The position numbers and the translations under genes were made by a program. 64,000 nt of DNA. Origin: an uncultured delta proteobacterium. Its GTDB lineage: Bacteria > Desulfobacterota > Syntrophia > Syntrophales > Smithellaceae. Position 1 is the stretch's first letter; every line of letters begins with the position of its first letter. Shown here piece after piece: positions 24,652 to 32,073 of this stretch. The notes below the pieces were generated by a model that was given only the letters and a program-made list of their open reading frames with translations, did not search any database and was not told the origin of the DNA. The DNA lies in NCBI GenBank assembly GCA_963753975.1, contig CAVWEH010000002.1:512001-576000 (forward strand), given 5' to 3'.

Positions 24652-24728
24652 GGCGGTGTAGCTCAGCTGGTTAGAGCATACGGCTCATATCCGTAGTGTC
24701 CGGGGTCCGATTCCCTGCACCGCCACCA
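24652..24728 (+). tRNA. tRNA with CAT anticodon (probably elongator tRNA-Met)
   Basis: GGCGGTG/CACCGCC acceptor stem, TACGG-CTCATAT-CCGTA anticodon arm, encoded CCA. Confidence 0.92.
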
Positions 24729-25825
24729 TAATTATAACAAGGACTTAGGAGTTTTTCTAAGTCCTTCTTTTTTGCGCCCGGGTCACTTTCCGTGCCATAA
24801 ATGTCATCTAAAACGCTTACCGCCTTCATTCTTTTCTCTTTTAATGAATAAAGATATTTTTTAGTGGTTATCAGATTTGTATGTCCAAGGAGCTCACTAA
24901 CAACCTGAACATCAGGCCTATTATTTTCACTACCCATAGCTATTGTTGAGGCGAAAACATCCCTTAAATCTTTGGCAGTGATTTTAATCCCTGTTTTCAT
25001 TGTTATCCTTTTAAACATTTTATCTCTTCTCAATATCCGCTTACCGTTATTGTGATGAAATATAAAAGGCGAATCGGTTTTATAAGCCTCTAATCCTTTT
25101 AAAGTCATATAAAGACCATTACACATATCCAGCTGCCTTAAAGAACTTTCAGTTTTTGTTCCCCTGATTATAATTTCCCTGTTTTCATAATTTACGTCGG
25201 TCCATTTACTGGACAGCGCTTCAGATAATCTTTCGCCGGTAAAAAGTAAAAACCTGAAGAATAAAAGTTCTTCTTTCTCTAACGCTGATTCAGCCTTTTT
25301 TATTTCTTCAGGAGTAAAACCATTTTTTATGATCCTTTCCGGCCTGATTCTTTTTCTGGAAACTTTCCTCATAGGATTTAGGTCTATTATTTCTTCTTTC
25401 ACCGCCCAGTTTAATAATGCGTTTAAATCCGTCACATAATGAGTGATAGTATTCTTTGATATATCCCTCTTGCATTGTTCATCAATGAACGCTTCAATGT
25501 CATTATGAGTAATATCTTTCAGCCGCTTTCCCGCTGTAAAGAAAGGTAAGATAAAACTTTTAAAATTGGAAACGAGTCCACGCACCCTATTTTCAGATTT
25601 ACCGATTCTAGCAGAGTAAGCCAAGAAACCATTCACCGCGTCAACACAAGCCATATTAGAAGCGGAAGCAGCCAATGAGGCCTCTCTCCTTAGTTTACCC
25701 AGATGATTTTCCGCTGCCTTTTGAGCTTCATCTCTGGTATTCCAACCGGAGAGCCTGTACCTGTTTGAGTGAAAGCATATCTGATAGCCCCACTTTCCGG
25801 TATCTTTCCTTTTTCTTATTTGCAT
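24671..25825 (-). CDS. Phage-type tyrosine integrase; C-terminus reads through attL
   Basis: FTGERLSE (R), GTKT (K), KDLRDVFAS, LLGHT...TKKY; N-terminal arm-binding and SAM-like domains. Confidence 0.92.
   Translation of the reverse strand: MQIRKRKDTGKWGYQICFHSNRYRLSGWNTRDEAQKAAENHLGKLRREASLAASASNMACVDAVNGFLAYSARIGKSENRVRGLVSNFKSFILPFFTAGKRLKDITHNDIEAFIDEQCKRDISKNTITHYVTDLNALLNWAVKEEIIDLNPMRKVSRKRIRPERIIKNGFTPEEIKKAESALEKEELLFFRFLLFTGERLSEALSSKWTDVNYENREIIIRGTKTESSLRQLDMCNGLYMTLKGLEAYKTDSPFIFHHNNGKRILRRDKMFKRITMKTGIKITAKDLRDVFASTIAMGSENNRPDVQVVSELLGHTNLITTKKYLYSLKEKRMKAVSVLDDIYGTESDPGAKKKDLEKLLSPCYNYGGGAGNRTPDTTDMSRML
24684..24728 (+). repeat. attL core (3' half of tRNA from the anticodon loop)
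   Basis: CTCATATCCGTAGTGTCCGGGGTCCGATTCCCTGCACCGCCACCA. Confidence 0.92.
24739..24773 (+). terminator. Intrinsic terminator after tRNA, supplied by the element
   Basis: AAGGACTTAG-8nt-CTAAGTCCTT followed by CTTTTTT. Confidence 0.65.
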
Positions 25826-26021
25826 CGAGATTAACCTCCTCCTCTCTCGACTTGATATAATTTATCAAGTCAATTTTTCTGTAACGGATTAGCCCCCTGC
25901 CCTTTCCTATCCTGATCTTGACTAGACCACACAATCCGTAAACCATATTAACTTTAACTTTTAAAATCTCCGCTATTTGGTTTACTGTCAAAAGCTCAGG
26001 GTATTTATCCAAAAAATTCAT
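25728..26021 (-). CDS. Excisionase-like HTH protein
   Basis: LLTVNQIAEILKV...IRYRKIDL; immediately upstream of int. Confidence 0.75.
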   Translation of the reverse strand: MNFLDKYPELLTVNQIAEILKVKVNMVYGLCGLVKIRIGKGRGLIRYRKIDLINYIKSREEEVNLDANKKKERYRKVGLSDMLSLKQVQALRLEYQR

Positions 26022-26046: not shown

Positions 26047-26334
26047 TTATTTTCTGATTTCCAAATCGCCAGCATTATCTAGTCTAATATCACCAACGCG
26101 TAATGCATCTTTCAATTTAGCGAATACCTTGTCTCCAACTGCAACAGCCTGTATTAAGCCCAACCTGTCCAGTGATTGCATATCCTCTAGCCCCATCTCA
26201 ATAAGATTAGCCATCATTTCGCTTCTTGTCCTGCGCCCTCTTATAGCGCGAATCCTATCAATTTCTTTTACTATGCTTGGTCTCAACATTACTGTGTATT
26301 GCTGTTTTGCTTCTTCCACTTTTGGTCTTCCCAT
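26047..26334 (-). CDS. Ribbon-helix-helix (CopG-like) regulator
   Basis: MGRPK, YTVML beta-strand, EIDRI...TRSEMM helices. Confidence 0.75.
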   Translation of the reverse strand: MGRPKVEEAKQQYTVMLRPSIVKEIDRIRAIRGRRTRSEMMANLIEMGLEDMQSLDRLGLIQAVAVGDKVFAKLKDALRVGDIRLDNAGDLEIRK

Positions 26335-26392: not shown

Positions 26393-26421
26393 ATATTACT
26401 ATATTGTTAATGCTCTGTCAA
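26393..26421 (-). promoter_or_regulatory. Sigma70 promoter for the RHH-xis-int operon
   Basis: Minus strand TTGACA-17 bp-TAATAT. Confidence 0.6.
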
Positions 26422-26628
26422 GTTATTTTTTTACTCTTCCGAAAAGATTACGGTGTGTCATTTTTCGCCATTTGTAAGGGTATTTATTTCTTCCTGAAGT
26501 CAATAGGATGGCAATACATGAAAATATACAACATTTCTTTCGGTAATAAATACTTACTGAATTAATGTGATCCCGTAATTTAATTCAAAATAATATCTTA
26601 TGAAGGATTAATCTGGCTAATAATATCT

Positions 26629-27627
26629 TCAGTCATGAATTAGCGAACGACCATTTTTGCTGAGGTAAGGATCGAGAGTTTTCCAGTCTATTGTGATGAA
26701 AACATTAAAACCTTTCATATAAACTTCAAAAAATCCGAAGCCCAACCCATCTTTCAAGATCACCCACTCACTAGGTGAAGTTACTTTATGCATGATCTCC
26801 CAAGTGCTAATTTTATTGTATGGGTACTCTCTTTTCAGGTACTGAGCAATTTTCTCATCCTGCAGTTTCTGAGAAACTAGTGCTGCAACTTTGCTCTGCC
26901 AGTCGGTTTTATCACCGAATAAATCTGCAGCTTGTAATTCCCTTTTGCTTTCTAACAGCCAAGAAATGGACTCTGCTTCCGCATCGGTTCGATATGGACT
27001 TGCTGCACCCTCACTTATCATAGAGTCTAAACGTCTGACTGATATTAAGTGCTTGTTACTAAAGCTAACGGTGTATTCGTTATTACGATTTATACAACCT
27101 CTGGAATATTTAGAATGGCCAGTGGCGTATTTAGAAATAAAATTATTCCAGAATTTCTCATTTTCGTCTCGCGGGTTTTCAATTTGCGGATACGTGAGAT
27201 CGTTTCTTGAATAATGAGCATAAACATTTCTAAAAATACGATCAGGGAATTTGATCAAGCTGCATTGCAGTTGTTTGATTCTTTCTTTATAAGTCTCCTT
27301 TATTCCACTATCGGGGTTAGTATAGGAAGATATTATTTTGAGCCAGTACTTCTGATATTGCCTTGTTTCCTTCTGACCTTCAGGAGATAAATTGGTCATG
27401 GCGTCATGGTAAACTTTAGCCATCTCTTCATCGAGTTTGGAGAGTTCTGCATCGGAGCATACGATCTTCTCCACCTTACTGGCAGCCTTCTGGCAATCAA
27501 AGCTTGCGGCAGTGGCTTGTGTGGAAAATAATCCGCAAAGAATAATGGCTCTGAAAAATACTTGTAGGAAGGAACTTCTGATGGCTCCCGCTTTTCTGAT
27601 ACTATTTGAACCATTAGTCGATTTCAT
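26629..27627 (-). CDS. Exported LprI/DUF1311 (lysozyme-inhibitor-like) domain protein with C-terminal DUF3298/RsiV-like region
   Basis: Signal peptide; ASFDCQKA.SKVEKIVCSDAELSKLD...YQKYWL. Confidence 0.8.
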   Translation of the reverse strand: MKSTNGSNSIRKAGAIRSSFLQVFFRAIILCGLFSTQATAASFDCQKAASKVEKIVCSDAELSKLDEEMAKVYHDAMTNLSPEGQKETRQYQKYWLKIISSYTNPDSGIKETYKERIKQLQCSLIKFPDRIFRNVYAHYSRNDLTYPQIENPRDENEKFWNNFISKYATGHSKYSRGCINRNNEYTVSFSNKHLISVRRLDSMISEGAASPYRTDAEAESISWLLESKRELQAADLFGDKTDWQSKVAALVSQKLQDEKIAQYLKREYPYNKISTWEIMHKVTSPSEWVILKDGLGFGFFEVYMKGFNVFITIDWKTLDPYLSKNGRSLIHD

Positions 27628-27768
27628 AACTGCCTCCGGTTAAGCTATGTAGTGATGAAAATAATTTTAAGCTTGAAGGATGATGATATTTATTTTCTAA
27701 ATGATTGCAATAGATATTATTTCGTGACGAAAATTGCGTATGTATCAATATTGAATGTTTCTACCAGT

Positions 27769-27818
27769 TATCATCAATTTATCTTGACAGGTTTTTCTAA
27801 CACTTAGTAGGTGAAACA
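27769..27818 (+). repeat. Cargo-boundary 50-bp site, copy A
   Basis: TATCATCAATT-N17-CTAACACTTAGTAGGTGAAACA; aligns without gaps to copies B and C. Confidence 0.65.
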
Positions 27819-28112
27819 AATAATCGACTTCTTCCTGAAGTCGGCAACTTCCTAGATTTCATATTTATACTAGATTGCTAGTGGAAATAGTGATATTAGG
27901 AAAGCGTATTTAAAAGGCAAGCTCAAATAACAGTCCCATATTATGCATCCTTTTTAAGACTAAGTGAGGGTGTTATGTGGCTGATTTTTGAAACCCCGTT
28001 TCTTAAAAAAGAGTGGGGTTTTATTTTTTGGGATACTGTTATAATTAAAACTACCTTTAGTGACATTCTGATAGTTAGGTAATTTACATTTTTAAGCATA
28101 GAATAAGGTTCA

Positions 28113-28754
28113 ATGATGCAAATATCAGAGTTAACAGTTAGACTAATAATTCTCATCATTCCCGGTATAGTCGCAACTTTAATAGTGGATACTCTGACAA
28201 TTCATCGGGAATGGAGTCCTTTCAGGTTTAGTATTTATTCAGTAGTGTTAGGAGTCACATCTTATATATTCTACCAATTATTCTTGTGTATGTGGCATCT
28301 ATTATTTTTGTTATGCCCACTCTTTCCTGACCCTCCAAGTTTAATATTTTGGTCGTCATTATTTGATAATACGATCCCAATTTCCATATACGAAGTTATT
28401 TTTACATGTTTATGCGGTTTAGTTTTAGGTCTTTTATTTACTAGCATTATTAACCATCAATATTTATACAAAATTACAAAGAAGCTAAAAATATCAGATG
28501 TATATGGTGAGGAAGAATTATTTACACATTTTATGAGGAAGGACGATGTAGAATGGGTATGGGTAAGGTGCAAGACTACAGGTTTGACATATGATGGTTA
28601 TGTAGATAGCTTTGCAGAAACTGAAAAATTACAAGAAATAGAATTGAAAGATGTTACTGTATACAATTCAGAAGATTCTAAAGAATTATATAAACTATCA
28701 AAAATTTATCTTGCTTCACAACCGGGAGACTTTATAATCGAAGTTAGAAAATAA
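28113..28754 (+). CDS. Membrane protein (possibly DUF6338-like)
   Basis: LIIPG motif, 3 TM helices, C-terminal Sm-like region YDGYVDSF..EIELKDV. Confidence 0.7.
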   Translation: MMQISELTVRLIILIIPGIVATLIVDTLTIHREWSPFRFSIYSVVLGVTSYIFYQLFLCMWHLLFLLCPLFPDPPSLIFWSSLFDNTIPISIYEVIFTCLCGLVLGLLFTSIINHQYLYKITKKLKISDVYGEEELFTHFMRKDDVEWVWVRCKTTGLTYDGYVDSFAETEKLQEIELKDVTVYNSEDSKELYKLSKIYLASQPGDFIIEVRK

Positions 28755-28772
28755 TTAGAAGGATAATCTATT

Positions 28773-28928
28773 ATGGAAAAAAGAGAAGCCGATCTAAAAG
28801 AAGTATTTGAGGTTAGGAAAGGCGGTTCAAAACCAAAACCTACTACACCAAAACCACAGGGGCCACCGCCACCATTAAAGCCGCAGGGACCACCACCTCA
28901 ATCAGAGCCACAGAAGAAGTCAAATTAA
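28773..28928 (+). CDS. 51-aa proline-rich microprotein (below the ORF-track cutoff)
   Basis: GAAGGA RBS; MEKREADLKEVFEVRKGGSKPKPTTPKPQGPPPPLKPQGPPPQSEPQKKSN*. Confidence 0.6.
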   Translation: MEKREADLKEVFEVRKGGSKPKPTTPKPQGPPPPLKPQGPPPQSEPQKKSN

Positions 28929-29080
28929 AGGATAGATACAAAAACGTATAGTTCTTGAAAAACAATTAACAATCTTCAAGAAGAAATAAAGAACTTATGT
29001 CTATGACTTATTTTGAGGGGTTTGGATTATTATAAAGCATACATATGGACAGTGTCGGATGCATGAACTAAGATTGGGAG

Positions 29081-29623
29081 ATGCAAATGGATACACACGA
29101 TTGGGCGGCATTATGTACTGCCCTTATCGCAATAGGCACGTGGGCCCTCGTTTTCGCCACCTTCCGACTCGTTAAAGAGCAGCATGAGACGACCAAGGCC
29201 GAACTTAGGGTAAAACTACAAGTGCATATGGAAGACAGATTTGACTCCCACTCAATGCTCCTAGCACGCCAAGCACTGGCGAGCAAATTGCTGGCTGGTG
29301 TTCCCCGCGAAGATATTCAAGAAACAGTAATGAACTTCTTCGAATCTCTTGGGACACTTTTTCGCCGCGATTATCTTGATCCGGATATGATGTGGGAAGA
29401 TTTCAGTTTCCATGCCACACGATGGTGGAGTGCTACGAAAGACTACATACTCGCGGAACGCAATTTACAACGTAACGATGATACGATTTTCCATGATTTC
29501 CAGAAACTAGTTGATGAATGCTATTCTATAGAAAGTACCAGAAGAAAGCTCTCTAGGGCACAGCTTGAGCCCAGTCGACAAGACGTAAAACAGTTTTTGA
29601 TTGATGAAAGTAATCTTCTGTGA
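29081..29623 (+). CDS. Membrane-anchored hypothetical protein (possibly DUF4760-like)
   Basis: N-terminal TM; VMNFFESLG...LDPDM; FHDFQKL. Confidence 0.7.
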   Translation: MQMDTHDWAALCTALIAIGTWALVFATFRLVKEQHETTKAELRVKLQVHMEDRFDSHSMLLARQALASKLLAGVPREDIQETVMNFFESLGTLFRRDYLDPDMMWEDFSFHATRWWSATKDYILAERNLQRNDDTIFHDFQKLVDECYSIESTRRKLSRAQLEPSRQDVKQFLIDESNLL

Positions 29624-29655
29624 GGCATCATAGGGGTTACTCCCTTTCCGTCAAT

Positions 29656-29705
29656 AATCTTCAATTATGACAACTACCCATTACTGAAACTTTGTAGGTG
29701 AAACA
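29656..29705 (+). repeat. Cargo-boundary 50-bp site, copy B
   Basis: AATCTTCAATTATGACAACTACCCATTACTGAAACTTTGTAGGTGAAACA. Confidence 0.7.
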
Positions 29706-29847
29706 GTGAATCTGTAGGTTCGGCAATCCAAAAAAAATCATAATTTAGTTTTTTTGTTGACTCCTGCCTGAAATTCTCATTTTTCAAATTATCGATTCTA
29801 TGCTAGGTTACAACAAGTAATCGTTAGAGAGAGAGAGGAAAGAAATT

Positions 29848-30474
29848 ATGAAATTAAGAAGATTGATTGCAATTTTGTTAATATCTTTTATCGCAATTTT
29901 TCCCATTGCATGCAGCATGGGGCAAACAAGATATGACTTATGTAACACACCAGTTATTGGGTTAATCATGTATCCATTATTTCTTTGTGCCTCCTCACCG
30001 CTCATTCCTGAGACGGATATCTCACTTTTAGAATCTGGCGTTGTGTTAAAAACAATTTTCAAAGCACGTATCGAAAAAAGCTATAAGTTAATACTATCTT
30101 TTTATTTTCCAAAGGATCAAGATAGAGATAAAGACAATATTATAGGAGGACCAGGATACGACGGATACTGCAGAAGCTGCTTAGAAGAATGTAACTCAAA
30201 TCGAATGTCAGAAAGCGAAGAATATCGTAAATCTTATGGGACAATGATTCCTATTAGAGTCATAGTAACGAAATTGTCAGATTCAACTGTTGTTGTTGAT
30301 AAGACATTCCAAACTGTGTGTTCTATTGCATCGGGAGCTAACGATAAATGGAGAGACATTGGTTGGATAAAATTAACTGAAGGCAAGTATTCAATTGAGA
30401 TTATTAACACCACAGCTCAACCAGAATTAAAAGGAATTCAAACGAAAATTGGGTTATATATGGGAGGACATTGA
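29848..30474 (+). CDS. Putative lipoprotein (possibly DUF5625-like, immunity-like)
   Basis: Signal with PIAC lipobox; YGTMIPIRV, LTEGKYSIEI. Confidence 0.7.
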   Translation: MKLRRLIAILLISFIAIFPIACSMGQTRYDLCNTPVIGLIMYPLFLCASSPLIPETDISLLESGVVLKTIFKARIEKSYKLILSFYFPKDQDRDKDNIIGGPGYDGYCRSCLEECNSNRMSESEEYRKSYGTMIPIRVIVTKLSDSTVVVDKTFQTVCSIASGANDKWRDIGWIKLTEGKYSIEIINTTAQPELKGIQTKIGLYMGGH

Positions 30475-30555
30475 AAATAAAACGAATGCTAAACCATTAA
30501 TCCAACGTGTGGCATACAACTGATGGTGATCATTGTGTTTCACCTTTCAAATAGC

Positions 30556-30605
30556 AATCCTCAATTTTGACAATCACTCTCCACTGAAACTTAGTAGTGT
30601 AAGCA
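30556..30605 (+). repeat. Cargo-boundary 50-bp site, copy C
   Basis: AATCCTCAATTTTGACAATCACTCTCCACTGAAACTTAGTAGTGTAAGCA; 37/50 ungapped identity to copy B, exactly 900 bp downstream. Confidence 0.7.
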
Positions 30606-30627
30606 ACAATTTAATTCATTTCTCTTT

Positions 30628-31707
30628 CTATGAATATTCATACTGCTTTTTATAACCTTCAAATTCTTTTTCAAATACAACATCATCATTACCAACTGCA
30701 GGAATATACAAAGACCACTTAACAGGATTGATATATTGATCTCGCCCTATTCCAAGCGTATGCTCACCGTCAGAATTTCTTATCTTATGCCGCATATTAT
30801 AAAGACGTTTTTTAAAAAGCCATAACAAAGCCCTTATCAATTCCATTTTATCTTTTATCTTTTTATCAACATCACCCATAGGAGATAAAGATTTTGTAAT
30901 GTATCGCGTCAAATAACTTGCAAGGACAGCGCCGTTATCATGATGTCTTATAGGCTTACCAAATCTAATTCCTTGCGGCTGCGAATAAGGCCACAACTTG
31001 CTTAAATCCTCAATTTTCGCCACCCATGAACCATAAAACAACAAATGAAAATGAACCATTCCCTTTTCTGTAAATTCCATTACCCATGCAATAAAATTAT
31101 TTGGCTCACTATACTTCTTTTTATGCATTCTTAATTTACGCAAGAAATCAGAAACAAAATATCCGCCAACCACAGCAAGATAAGCTTCCGGTCCTAGATA
31201 CCACCAATCAGGAATAATCTGTTTAACAATATCAGGATCAAAAGTAAGGATTAAATGACTTACCTTTTTTAATCCCTTTACTTCATCCAAAGCACGTTGA
31301 CCAACAATCCAACTATAATTATATTCACTATTCCAACGAGATTTATTCGGGAAAGTCTTTAATTCCCCCGCTTCATTGACCAAAGGAGGCGACATTGAAC
31401 CATCAACCCGAATCAACATTTTTTTAAAATCATTAATAATATCCTTTTGATCAACAAAACCAAATTTAATAGGCTCTGATAGTTTATGATTCTCTAACCA
31501 ATTATTACCGCCAGTAGCAAGGCCATAAGGGCAATCTCTTTTTTCTTTTGTTTTTTTGTCAAAATCAGCACTAGTCAGTCTGCTATGCTTCCGGCACGCC
31601 CTGCTTGCGCTAAGAGCTTGCGCGCCTTCGCGATTAATTACCTCAACAACCCTCGAGCCCGGAATCGAATTTAAAACAAACTGGACTAAATCTGACATGA
31701 AATACAC
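30628..31707 (-). CDS. HUH rolling-circle replication initiator (Rep)
   Basis: Motif I LILTF, motif II WVMEF..KGMVHFHLLF (HUH), motif III YLTRYITK (two tyrosines). Confidence 0.85.
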   Translation of the reverse strand: MYFMSDLVQFVLNSIPGSRVVEVINREGAQALSASRACRKHSRLTSADFDKKTKEKRDCPYGLATGGNNWLENHKLSEPIKFGFVDQKDIINDFKKMLIRVDGSMSPPLVNEAGELKTFPNKSRWNSEYNYSWIVGQRALDEVKGLKKVSHLILTFDPDIVKQIIPDWWYLGPEAYLAVVGGYFVSDFLRKLRMHKKKYSEPNNFIAWVMEFTEKGMVHFHLLFYGSWVAKIEDLSKLWPYSQPQGIRFGKPIRHHDNGAVLASYLTRYITKSLSPMGDVDKKIKDKMELIRALLWLFKKRLYNMRHKIRNSDGEHTLGIGRDQYINPVKWSLYIPAVGNDDVVFEKEFEGYKKQYEYS

Positions 31708-31999: not shown

Positions 32000-32044
32000 C
32001 TCATATCCGTAGTGTCCGGGGTCCGATTCCCTGCACCGCCACCA
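32000..32044 (+). repeat. attR core (displaced tRNA 3' fragment)
   Basis: Identical to 24684-24728. Confidence 0.92.
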
Positions 32045-32073
32045 AAATATAAGCCGGCGACATGCGGTGAAAT

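Follow-up and report, generated by a model that had tools for sequence, protein, structure and literature searches.

A 77-bp site marks points of gene-module exchange in an integrative Rep element and elsewhere in Smithella-type genomes

The window, a stretch of 64,000 nt from the genome of an uncultured delta proteobacterium (G000), contains a 7.4-kb integrative element bounded by a 49-bp repeat of the 3′ end of tRNA-Met (24684–24732 and 32000–32048). Its gene content comprises an integrase, an HTH_17 protein, a 95-aa protein, five cargo open reading frames (ORFs) and a rolling-circle Rep of the HUH type. Among the cargo lie three co-oriented copies, A, B and C, of a 77-bp site that recurs in related genomes. 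Comparison of its copies shows that the sites mark exact points of gene-module exchange, the DNA to the left and to the right of a site being inherited separately. Each site is built from inverted half-sites with 6-bp spacers, and two such junctions form docks at which the backbone of the element meets its changing cargo. The features run as follows.

24652–24728, plus strand: tRNA-Met, the integration target of the element.
24684–24732, plus strand: attL, a 49-bp direct repeat (3′ part of tRNA-Met), 98% identical to 32000–32048.
24671–25825, minus strand: tyrosine integrase of the phage-integrase type, 384 aa, with PF00589 and SAM-like domains.
25728–26021, minus strand: HTH_17 protein, excisionase-like.
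26047–26334, minus strand: 95-aa small protein common to related elements, putatively of ribbon-helix-helix (RHH)/CopG type, with no Pfam match.
26487–26496, plus strand: left cargo dock, a half-site with spacer TTCCTG, at whose last base (26496) backbone homology with a related element ends.
26534–26555, plus strand: degenerate left-type half-site behind the TTCCTG half-site, at the family's fixed distance.
26629–27627, minus strand: cargo, LprI-domain protein, 332 aa, reversed relative to the sites.
27749–27825, plus strand: site A, 77 bp, with the right spacer GTAGGT at 27807–27812.
27828–27837, plus strand: TTCCTG half-site, closing a 19-bp gene-less module behind site A.
28113–28754, plus strand: cargo, DUF6338-like membrane protein, below the Pfam cut-off.
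28773–28928, plus strand: cargo, 51-aa proline-rich ORF with no family match.
29081–29623, plus strand: cargo, DUF4760 protein, ending 12 bp short of site B.
29636–29712, plus strand: site B, 77 bp, with the right spacer at 29694–29699.
29848–30474, plus strand: cargo, DUF5625 protein with a lipoprotein-like N-terminus, sole gene of the 900-bp B–C unit.
30488–30543, plus strand: possible decayed integron attC, weak and read by eye, its right box overlapping the start of site C.
30536–30611, plus strand: site C, the right cargo dock beside the rep stop codon, with its right spacer one base short.
30628–31707, minus strand: HUH rolling-circle Rep, 359 aa, PF23343.
32000–32048, plus strand: attR.

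The Rep element varies its cargo between two docks

The original prediction described the three copies as 50-mers beginning at 27769, 29656 and 30556, and their ungapped alignment holds: A and B agree at 31/50 positions, A and C at 29/50 and B and C at 37/50, whereas 40 dinucleotide shuffles of the element gave no 50-mer pair above 33. Sites B and C are indeed 900 bp apart and bracket the single DUF5625 gene, and a 14-mer beginning TTCTTCCTG does occur at both 26488 and 27829. The proposed length was too short: the real site covers about 77 bp, its left end lying 20 bases before the proposed one. A fourth copy, suggested at 26413–26462, matches A, B and C at only 18–22/50 positions and consists of backbone sequence common to related elements; we infer that its ‘left box’ is a −35-like hexamer on the minus strand, before the 95-aa gene. 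The true junction lies just to the right of this place, where a related junction occupies 26487–26555.

Two docks separate the constant backbone of the Rep element from the DNA that varies between them. On the left, a longer read-out of one related element (L148) is homologous to the window between 26194 and 26496, and the match breaks off with the final base of the TTCCTG half-site; a half-site of the fourth type follows at the family offset. On the right, homology of related loci to the window starts at 30537–30542, the left edge of site C. As backbone homology ends at 26496 and restarts at site C, the cargo (26497–30535) lies between two fixed docks. Seven close Rep loci were found outside the window, five of which carry a site at the rep 3′ end, the other two being short fragments (L207, L208). 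The rep-to-site distance is 7–22 bp in three measured intact cases, the window included, and 276 bp in L202. The DNA upstream of the rep-side site differs in every related locus. With the same dock beside rep and different DNA upstream in five Rep loci, the predicted gain of cargo in modules at a dedicated site is supported. The outer arms of the backbone face inwards at both of its ends, as in a module.

Classical integron cassettes with attC sites occur inside the cargo of two related Rep elements (L204:2050–4150 and L202:7420–7500), and the end of the last attC there coincides exactly with the first bases of the 77-bp site. The putative decayed attC of the window (30488–30543) folds at only −5.5 to −6.3 kcal/mol, whereas L202 has a strong attC of −18 kcal/mol in the same place. 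A general rule of attC followed by site was rejected: 96 of 366 sites begin with GTT, but an upstream attC passes the fold filter in only 2/366.

Anatomy, distribution and breakpoints of the site

A profile of 209 sites defines a conserved unit of about 77 bp, in which two inverted half-sites, mirrored in their base profile, flank a 16-bp variable centre. Each half-site consists of an inner arm of 11–12 bp and an outer arm, beginning G(A/T)AA when read outwards, with a spacer of 6 bp between them, the arm limits being our own reading of the base profile; the outer boxes of the whole site are TTTC and G(A/T)AA. The right spacer, GTAGGT, is invariant and the left spacer is variable. Behind 124 of 381 unique sites there is a third half-site with the spacer TTCCTG, mostly at +80/81 or +105/109. 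A fourth stands at one fixed offset in 35 of the 87 sites with an exact TTCCTG half-site, compared with 1/87 on the opposite strand at any offset. The left and right half-sites are inverted, whereas the third (TTCCTG) and fourth half-sites are in direct repeat. In two other families, seen in G205 (L513–L518) and G274 (L503–L512), the centres of the site are lineage-specific and near-identical, and in G274 and G144 the centre appears to be one base shorter.

The prediction that the sites are not attC-like hairpins was borne out. No stable hairpin was detected on either strand of 60 sampled sites (mean fold z about −0.55), and 214 sites gave no compensatory covariation (dyad pairing 13.93 observed, 14.02 expected). 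Among 55 pairs, the left box did not pair with the start of the unit's own circle (6.56 against 6.50 shuffled, p = 0.39). The 22 sites of G000 show no replication-strand bias (11 and 11), and 73 pairs of neighbouring sites share no target-site duplication (0.524 against 0.516, p = 0.40). Rfam holds no family for the site; tRNA alone passed. Neighbouring sites less than 4.5 kb apart have the same orientation in 55/59 pairs, and a site follows a same-strand gene in 138 of 173 cases, at a median of 85 bases.

A matrix built from the three copies, as had been proposed, finds strong matches, exceeding 40 bits on three other contigs of G000; the site is not confined to the element. When iterated, this 50-column matrix gave 20 hits of 33–59 bits in G000, whereas no hit in three shuffled genomes exceeded 14.7 bits, and the final matrix of 72 columns gave 22 sites. 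Nineteen of these lie outside the element, mostly beside ordinary genes, which does not support a system belonging to this element. A pattern search matched 24 of 61 related genomes (none with the reversed control), and a sequence profile found the site in 90 of 116 family genomes, whose copy numbers run from 1 to at least 41 (counts at the upper end are lower bounds); of 141 genomes taken as a sample of the phylum, 9 matched. We call genomes with at least 20 sites site-rich; 20 of the 116 qualify. With one genome per species, the exact pattern occurred in 108 stretches, and the 80 of these that were listed come mostly from Smithella, Smithellaceae, Syntrophaceae or delta-proteobacterial metagenome-assembled genomes. 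Viral contigs held no exact site, annotated plasmids no match to site A and annotated phages no match to site B.

Flanks were compared among the 381 unique sites, for which the upstream flank was long enough in 366 and the downstream flank in 353. Similar DNA was shared upstream only by 146 pairs, downstream only by 38 and on both sides by one; a second both-sides case emerged on inspection of an ‘upstream-only’ pair. These pairs include paralogue families and are not independent. One 171-aa unit has different neighbours in G000 and G011. The DNA on the two sides of a site is therefore inherited separately. The concern that the motif might be an ordinary genome-wide promoter or transcription-factor site was right in that it is genome-wide; it acts, however, as a breakpoint and not as an operator.

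The position of the exchange could be mapped within the site. In 70 pairs with a common downstream module, agreement is 0.87–1.00 at positions 59–77 and at background at the variable positions 52–58, which places the main crossover in GTAGGT(G), with breakpoints at positions 59–65. About 11 of 322 left-part hits, site C of the window included, carry deletions of 1–6 bases within GTAGGTG, as read by eye. The centre does not travel with the downstream flank (identity 0.49, background 0.44).

Recombination mechanism and candidate enzymes

On balance, we consider it likely that this lineage-wide site exchanges modules by double-stranded, site-specific recombination in the spacer, driven by a tyrosine recombinase acting in trans, and this enzyme is probably not the element's own integrase. 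With identical right spacers all sites would be mutually compatible, and pairs in direct repeat would allow modules to be excised and inserted in the manner of Acinetobacter pdif sites. Recombination at the variable left spacers would be rarer, accounting for the occasional swap of the centre. The weakest step concerns the enzyme, which would be a protein of 200 aa with little beyond a catalytic domain, encoded within a module of its own system. In genomes that lack it, among them G000, the arrays would be frozen unless a copy arrived from outside.

This 200-aa tyrosine recombinase is the best, if unproven, candidate. It has no core-binding domain and retains the R-K-H-R-H-Y motifs. Its five closest copies (85–100% identical; L031, L040, L523, L524 and L531, gene at about 1500–2100) stand in a different neighbourhood each time. 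A full site follows the stop codon by 13 bp in three of the five, and a TTCCTG half-site with a left half-site precedes the start by about 200 bp in four. The family comprises 2162 proteins at E ≤ 1e-30, and more than 100 metagenome homologues are at least 81% identical.

Several results weigh against this interpretation. Across recombinase lists from 15 site-rich genomes, whose loci were fetched in part, no recombinase except XerC and XerD is common to all. The 200-aa recombinase is absent from G000; among the 116 family genomes, only 3 have a member of its close clade and 15 one of the wider family, five of these being site-rich (Fisher p = 0.13). It was found in 0/5 site-bearing genomes outside the family, its more distant members mostly have no site nearby, and it may be simple cargo. 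The crossover map also departs from a strict model. Positions 56–58 differ in most clean upstream-sharing pairs, where a strict 6-bp overlap would tie them to the upstream side; position 66 differs in 6 of 9 high-identity pairs with only the downstream gene in common; and in about half of the high-identity pairs with a common upstream flank the centre has been exchanged. Target duplication failed as a cause of these departures (p = 0.40, 73 pairs). Neither an excised circle nor an empty/filled pair within a single strain was observed. Contigs from four runs of relatives gave no credible B–C circle or excision joint, and the best public read run held only 0.07 of the words; both are evidence neither way.

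A rather unlikely alternative is that an HUH enzyme, either the element Rep or an IS91-type transposase, nicks the boundary between spacer and outer arm and rolls to the next site, the single-stranded circle then being pasted into another site. This Rep is present in 8 of the 116 family genomes, and all eight are among the 20 site-rich ones (p = 2e-7, kin not being independent). The dock at the rep 3′ end in five of seven close loci points the same way, as does an insertion sequence (IS) clade of the IS91 family whose right end resembles the site and whose target tetranucleotide, TTTC, is near the IS91 targets given in PMC13181058. However, 12 of the 20 site-rich genomes are without this Rep. 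No IS91 transposase (NF033538) was found in G000, G002, G005, G010, G011 or G013, whereas many site-poor genomes have one. Conservation runs about 12 bases past the breakpoint, which a tetranucleotide target would not give, and the sites do not fold.

The IS91-family element of this clade, the second enzyme lead, carries an upstream Xer/IntI-like recombinase (L043:7455–10040; also L044, L045, L046, L210, L217, L225 and L227). Of its 7 independent insertions, from four genomes, 6 are in reverse orientation at one and the same base of the left half-site; a hairpin resembling a half-site makes up its right end. Once joined, the two ends would pair as a long hairpin containing a 4-base bulge. Because its presence does not track site number, we regard the element as a parasite of the site. 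One relative, a more distant one, does not lie at a site. As a candidate for the exchange enzyme, its linked recombinase was set aside, being present in 6 of 61 genomes at E ≤ 1e-40, G000 not among them. A 279-aa recombinase beside one site in G010 occurs in 8 of 61 genomes, mostly site-poor, and thus does not track the sites either. Viral contigs held no relative of the Rep, the IS91-linked recombinase or the 200-aa recombinase.

Also unlikely is a small non-autonomous element or gene-conversion family whose modules are shuffled by homologous recombination between copies. Such a process would fit copy numbers from 0 to at least 41 within one family, the near-identical centres of the G205 copies and the frequent swapping of the centre between upstream-sharing pairs. 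Random crossovers would, however, let the centre travel with the downstream flank, which it never does. Nor does this alternative agree with the lack of a target-site duplication or with the concentration of small deletions in one 7-base word.

Action of the host XerC/XerD on the half-sites, as on Acinetobacter pdif, is improbable. The 11-6-11 half-site layout is that expected of these enzymes, which are, as noted, the only recombinases common to all site-rich genomes examined. The host dif is nevertheless present once in each of 5/5 genomes; in G000 it lies at C2:200344–200364, at the GC-skew maximum and the switch of the FtsK-orienting polar sequences. Its XerD arm begins with TTATGT, and the comparison made by hand matches the outer arm, G(A/T)AA, to this arm at about 4/11 positions and the inner arm to the XerC arm at about 5/11. 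Two dif-like strings resembling the inner arm fall within genes and were discarded as chance matches.

That the element's own integrase moves the cargo, as the original prediction had offered, is highly improbable. G000 encodes XerC, XerD, this integrase and two recombinase fragments, one of them an IntI remnant, so the integrase is its only intact non-Xer tyrosine recombinase. It nevertheless has its own 49-bp tRNA-Met attL/attR, which do not resemble the site; 19 of the 22 sites are located elsewhere in the genome; and the recombinases listed for G011 and G013 include no close relative. It likely acts on attL/attR and not on the 77-bp sites. Among 76 recombinase sequences compared from site-rich genomes, it clusters with only one other element integrase, at 45% identity. 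Its reading frame extends through attL into the tRNA-Met gene (24671–24732), and the C-terminus of the protein would therefore change on integration; the matching frame in related elements likewise continues. An ordinary promoter, operator or terminator, which would suit an intergenic, genome-wide motif found shortly behind same-strand genes, is barely tenable and largely refuted by the exchange of flanks, which are almost never inherited together, as well as by the fixed 77-bp multi-arm layout, the lack of a hairpin and an IS that targets one base of the site.

Other recombinase traces are few. Neither G000 nor G011 has a Y1 transposase (PF01797) or a resolvase domain, and none of nine TIGR02249 matches in G000, for an integron integrase with the insertion domain, lies above the cut-off. 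A tblastn search returned two short fragments like a large serine recombinase at C1:209–211 kb. At C2:602455–603313 of G000 one Xer gene is split into two frames (204 and 179 aa), and G013 and G002 are similar, possibly through assembly errors. The C-terminal IntI remnant of G000 (C4:123072–123203) lies upstream of a leuA-like gene, and G011 has a fragment of the same extent.

Relation to known module systems

The site works most like the dif modules of Acinetobacter and fails their arm test; it is neither a mimic of the host dif nor an attC. According to PMC13141974, the XerC/XerD modules at Acinetobacter pdif sites include Rep_3/OrfX plasmid backbones bounded by two sites and taking changing cargo. 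The Smithella-type system resembles them, on the same source, in its two-arm sites with a 6-bp spacer and a crossover in identical or near-identical spacers, in site-bounded modules that include gene-less ones, and in a replicon backbone that itself lies between two sites. It differs in that its arms are not host Xer boxes. Its half-sites also appear to depart from the strict alternation of dif modules, coming as a fixed inverted pair 16 bp apart with directly repeated TTCCTG half-sites; one of its spacers is invariant family-wide, and its sites are dispersed over the chromosome. IS elements reportedly target pdif sites too, as they do the Smithella sites.

Integrons, attC sites and CALINs (clusters of attC sites lacking an integron integrase), as PMC8618304 describes them, share with the Smithella units the co-oriented sites behind genes (55/59 pairs), the arrays without a neighbouring recombinase and the changing neighbours of each cassette. 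Unlike attC, the Smithella site has no RYYYAAC/GTTRRRY boxes, hairpin, covariation, own-circle pairing or replication-strand bias. Unlike integrons, the system is accompanied in G000 by an IntI remnant only, and its units often bring their own upstream region and can be reversed.

The suggested likeness to the recombinase-associated arrays of Bacteroides (rAID) does not fit in layout. rAID-1 of Bacteroidales, as described in bioRxiv 10.1101/471110, is defined by a 5′ XerD-like gene with co-directional genes downstream, and it resembles the window element in having repetitive motifs between genes and small genes of low GC content close to a gene for a tyrosine recombinase. In the window, by contrast, a tRNA-targeting integrase lies on the minus strand while four of five cargo ORFs lie on the plus strand, and Xis and the 95-aa gene stand between them; most Smithella sites, moreover, are far from any recombinase.

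One-ended transposition with the oriIS/terIS ends of the IS91 family, as PMC13181058 presents it, likewise involves no target duplication and a junction beside a YTTC-like tetranucleotide, and, as described above, the end of one IS91 clade resembles the site. The Smithella-type system differs in that G000 has no IS91 transposase, that conservation extends on both sides of the junction, to about position 77, and that there is no folding palindrome. REP/RAYT sequences were rejected, since GTAG is present but nothing folds and PF01797 is missing from G000 and G011. A miniature inverted-repeat transposable element of the DDE type was rejected for want of a target-site duplication (73 pairs, as above).

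To our knowledge, few systems shuffle single-gene modules site-specifically, namely integrons and Xer-driven dif modules. The literature searched, with supplements and subscription papers outside its scope, yielded no description of the site, and literature searches on Smithellaceae with integrons and on catalytic-domain-only recombinases with cassettes returned nothing. We tentatively propose, as a possibility only, an undescribed gene-module system in Smithella-type syntrophs, in which a small self-carried tyrosine recombinase would serve dispersed chains of 11-6-11 half-sites, a rolling-circle element would dock cargo and carry modules between hosts, and an IS91 clade would parasitise the sites by mimicry. 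The system combines the logic of dif modules with different binding arms, on the chromosome and in dozens of copies, in uncultured syntrophs, and scans based on attC or dif would miss its sites. With the anatomy of the site, a mapped crossover and two named candidate enzymes, it can be tested directly in E. coli using short synthetic substrates.

Sites also stand at the edges of other small integrative elements (L045:3150–11896, L054:3326–6152, L125, L205:8218–11026 and L206:4489–6757), in which a related 90–95-aa gene is combined with different Rep-like genes and, once, with a MobF relaxase. One family of membrane proteins forms tandem paralogues at L028:105–9655, L044, L052 and L029, many of them directly before a site. 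In the largest protein cluster, 16 of 22 members end just upstream of a site.

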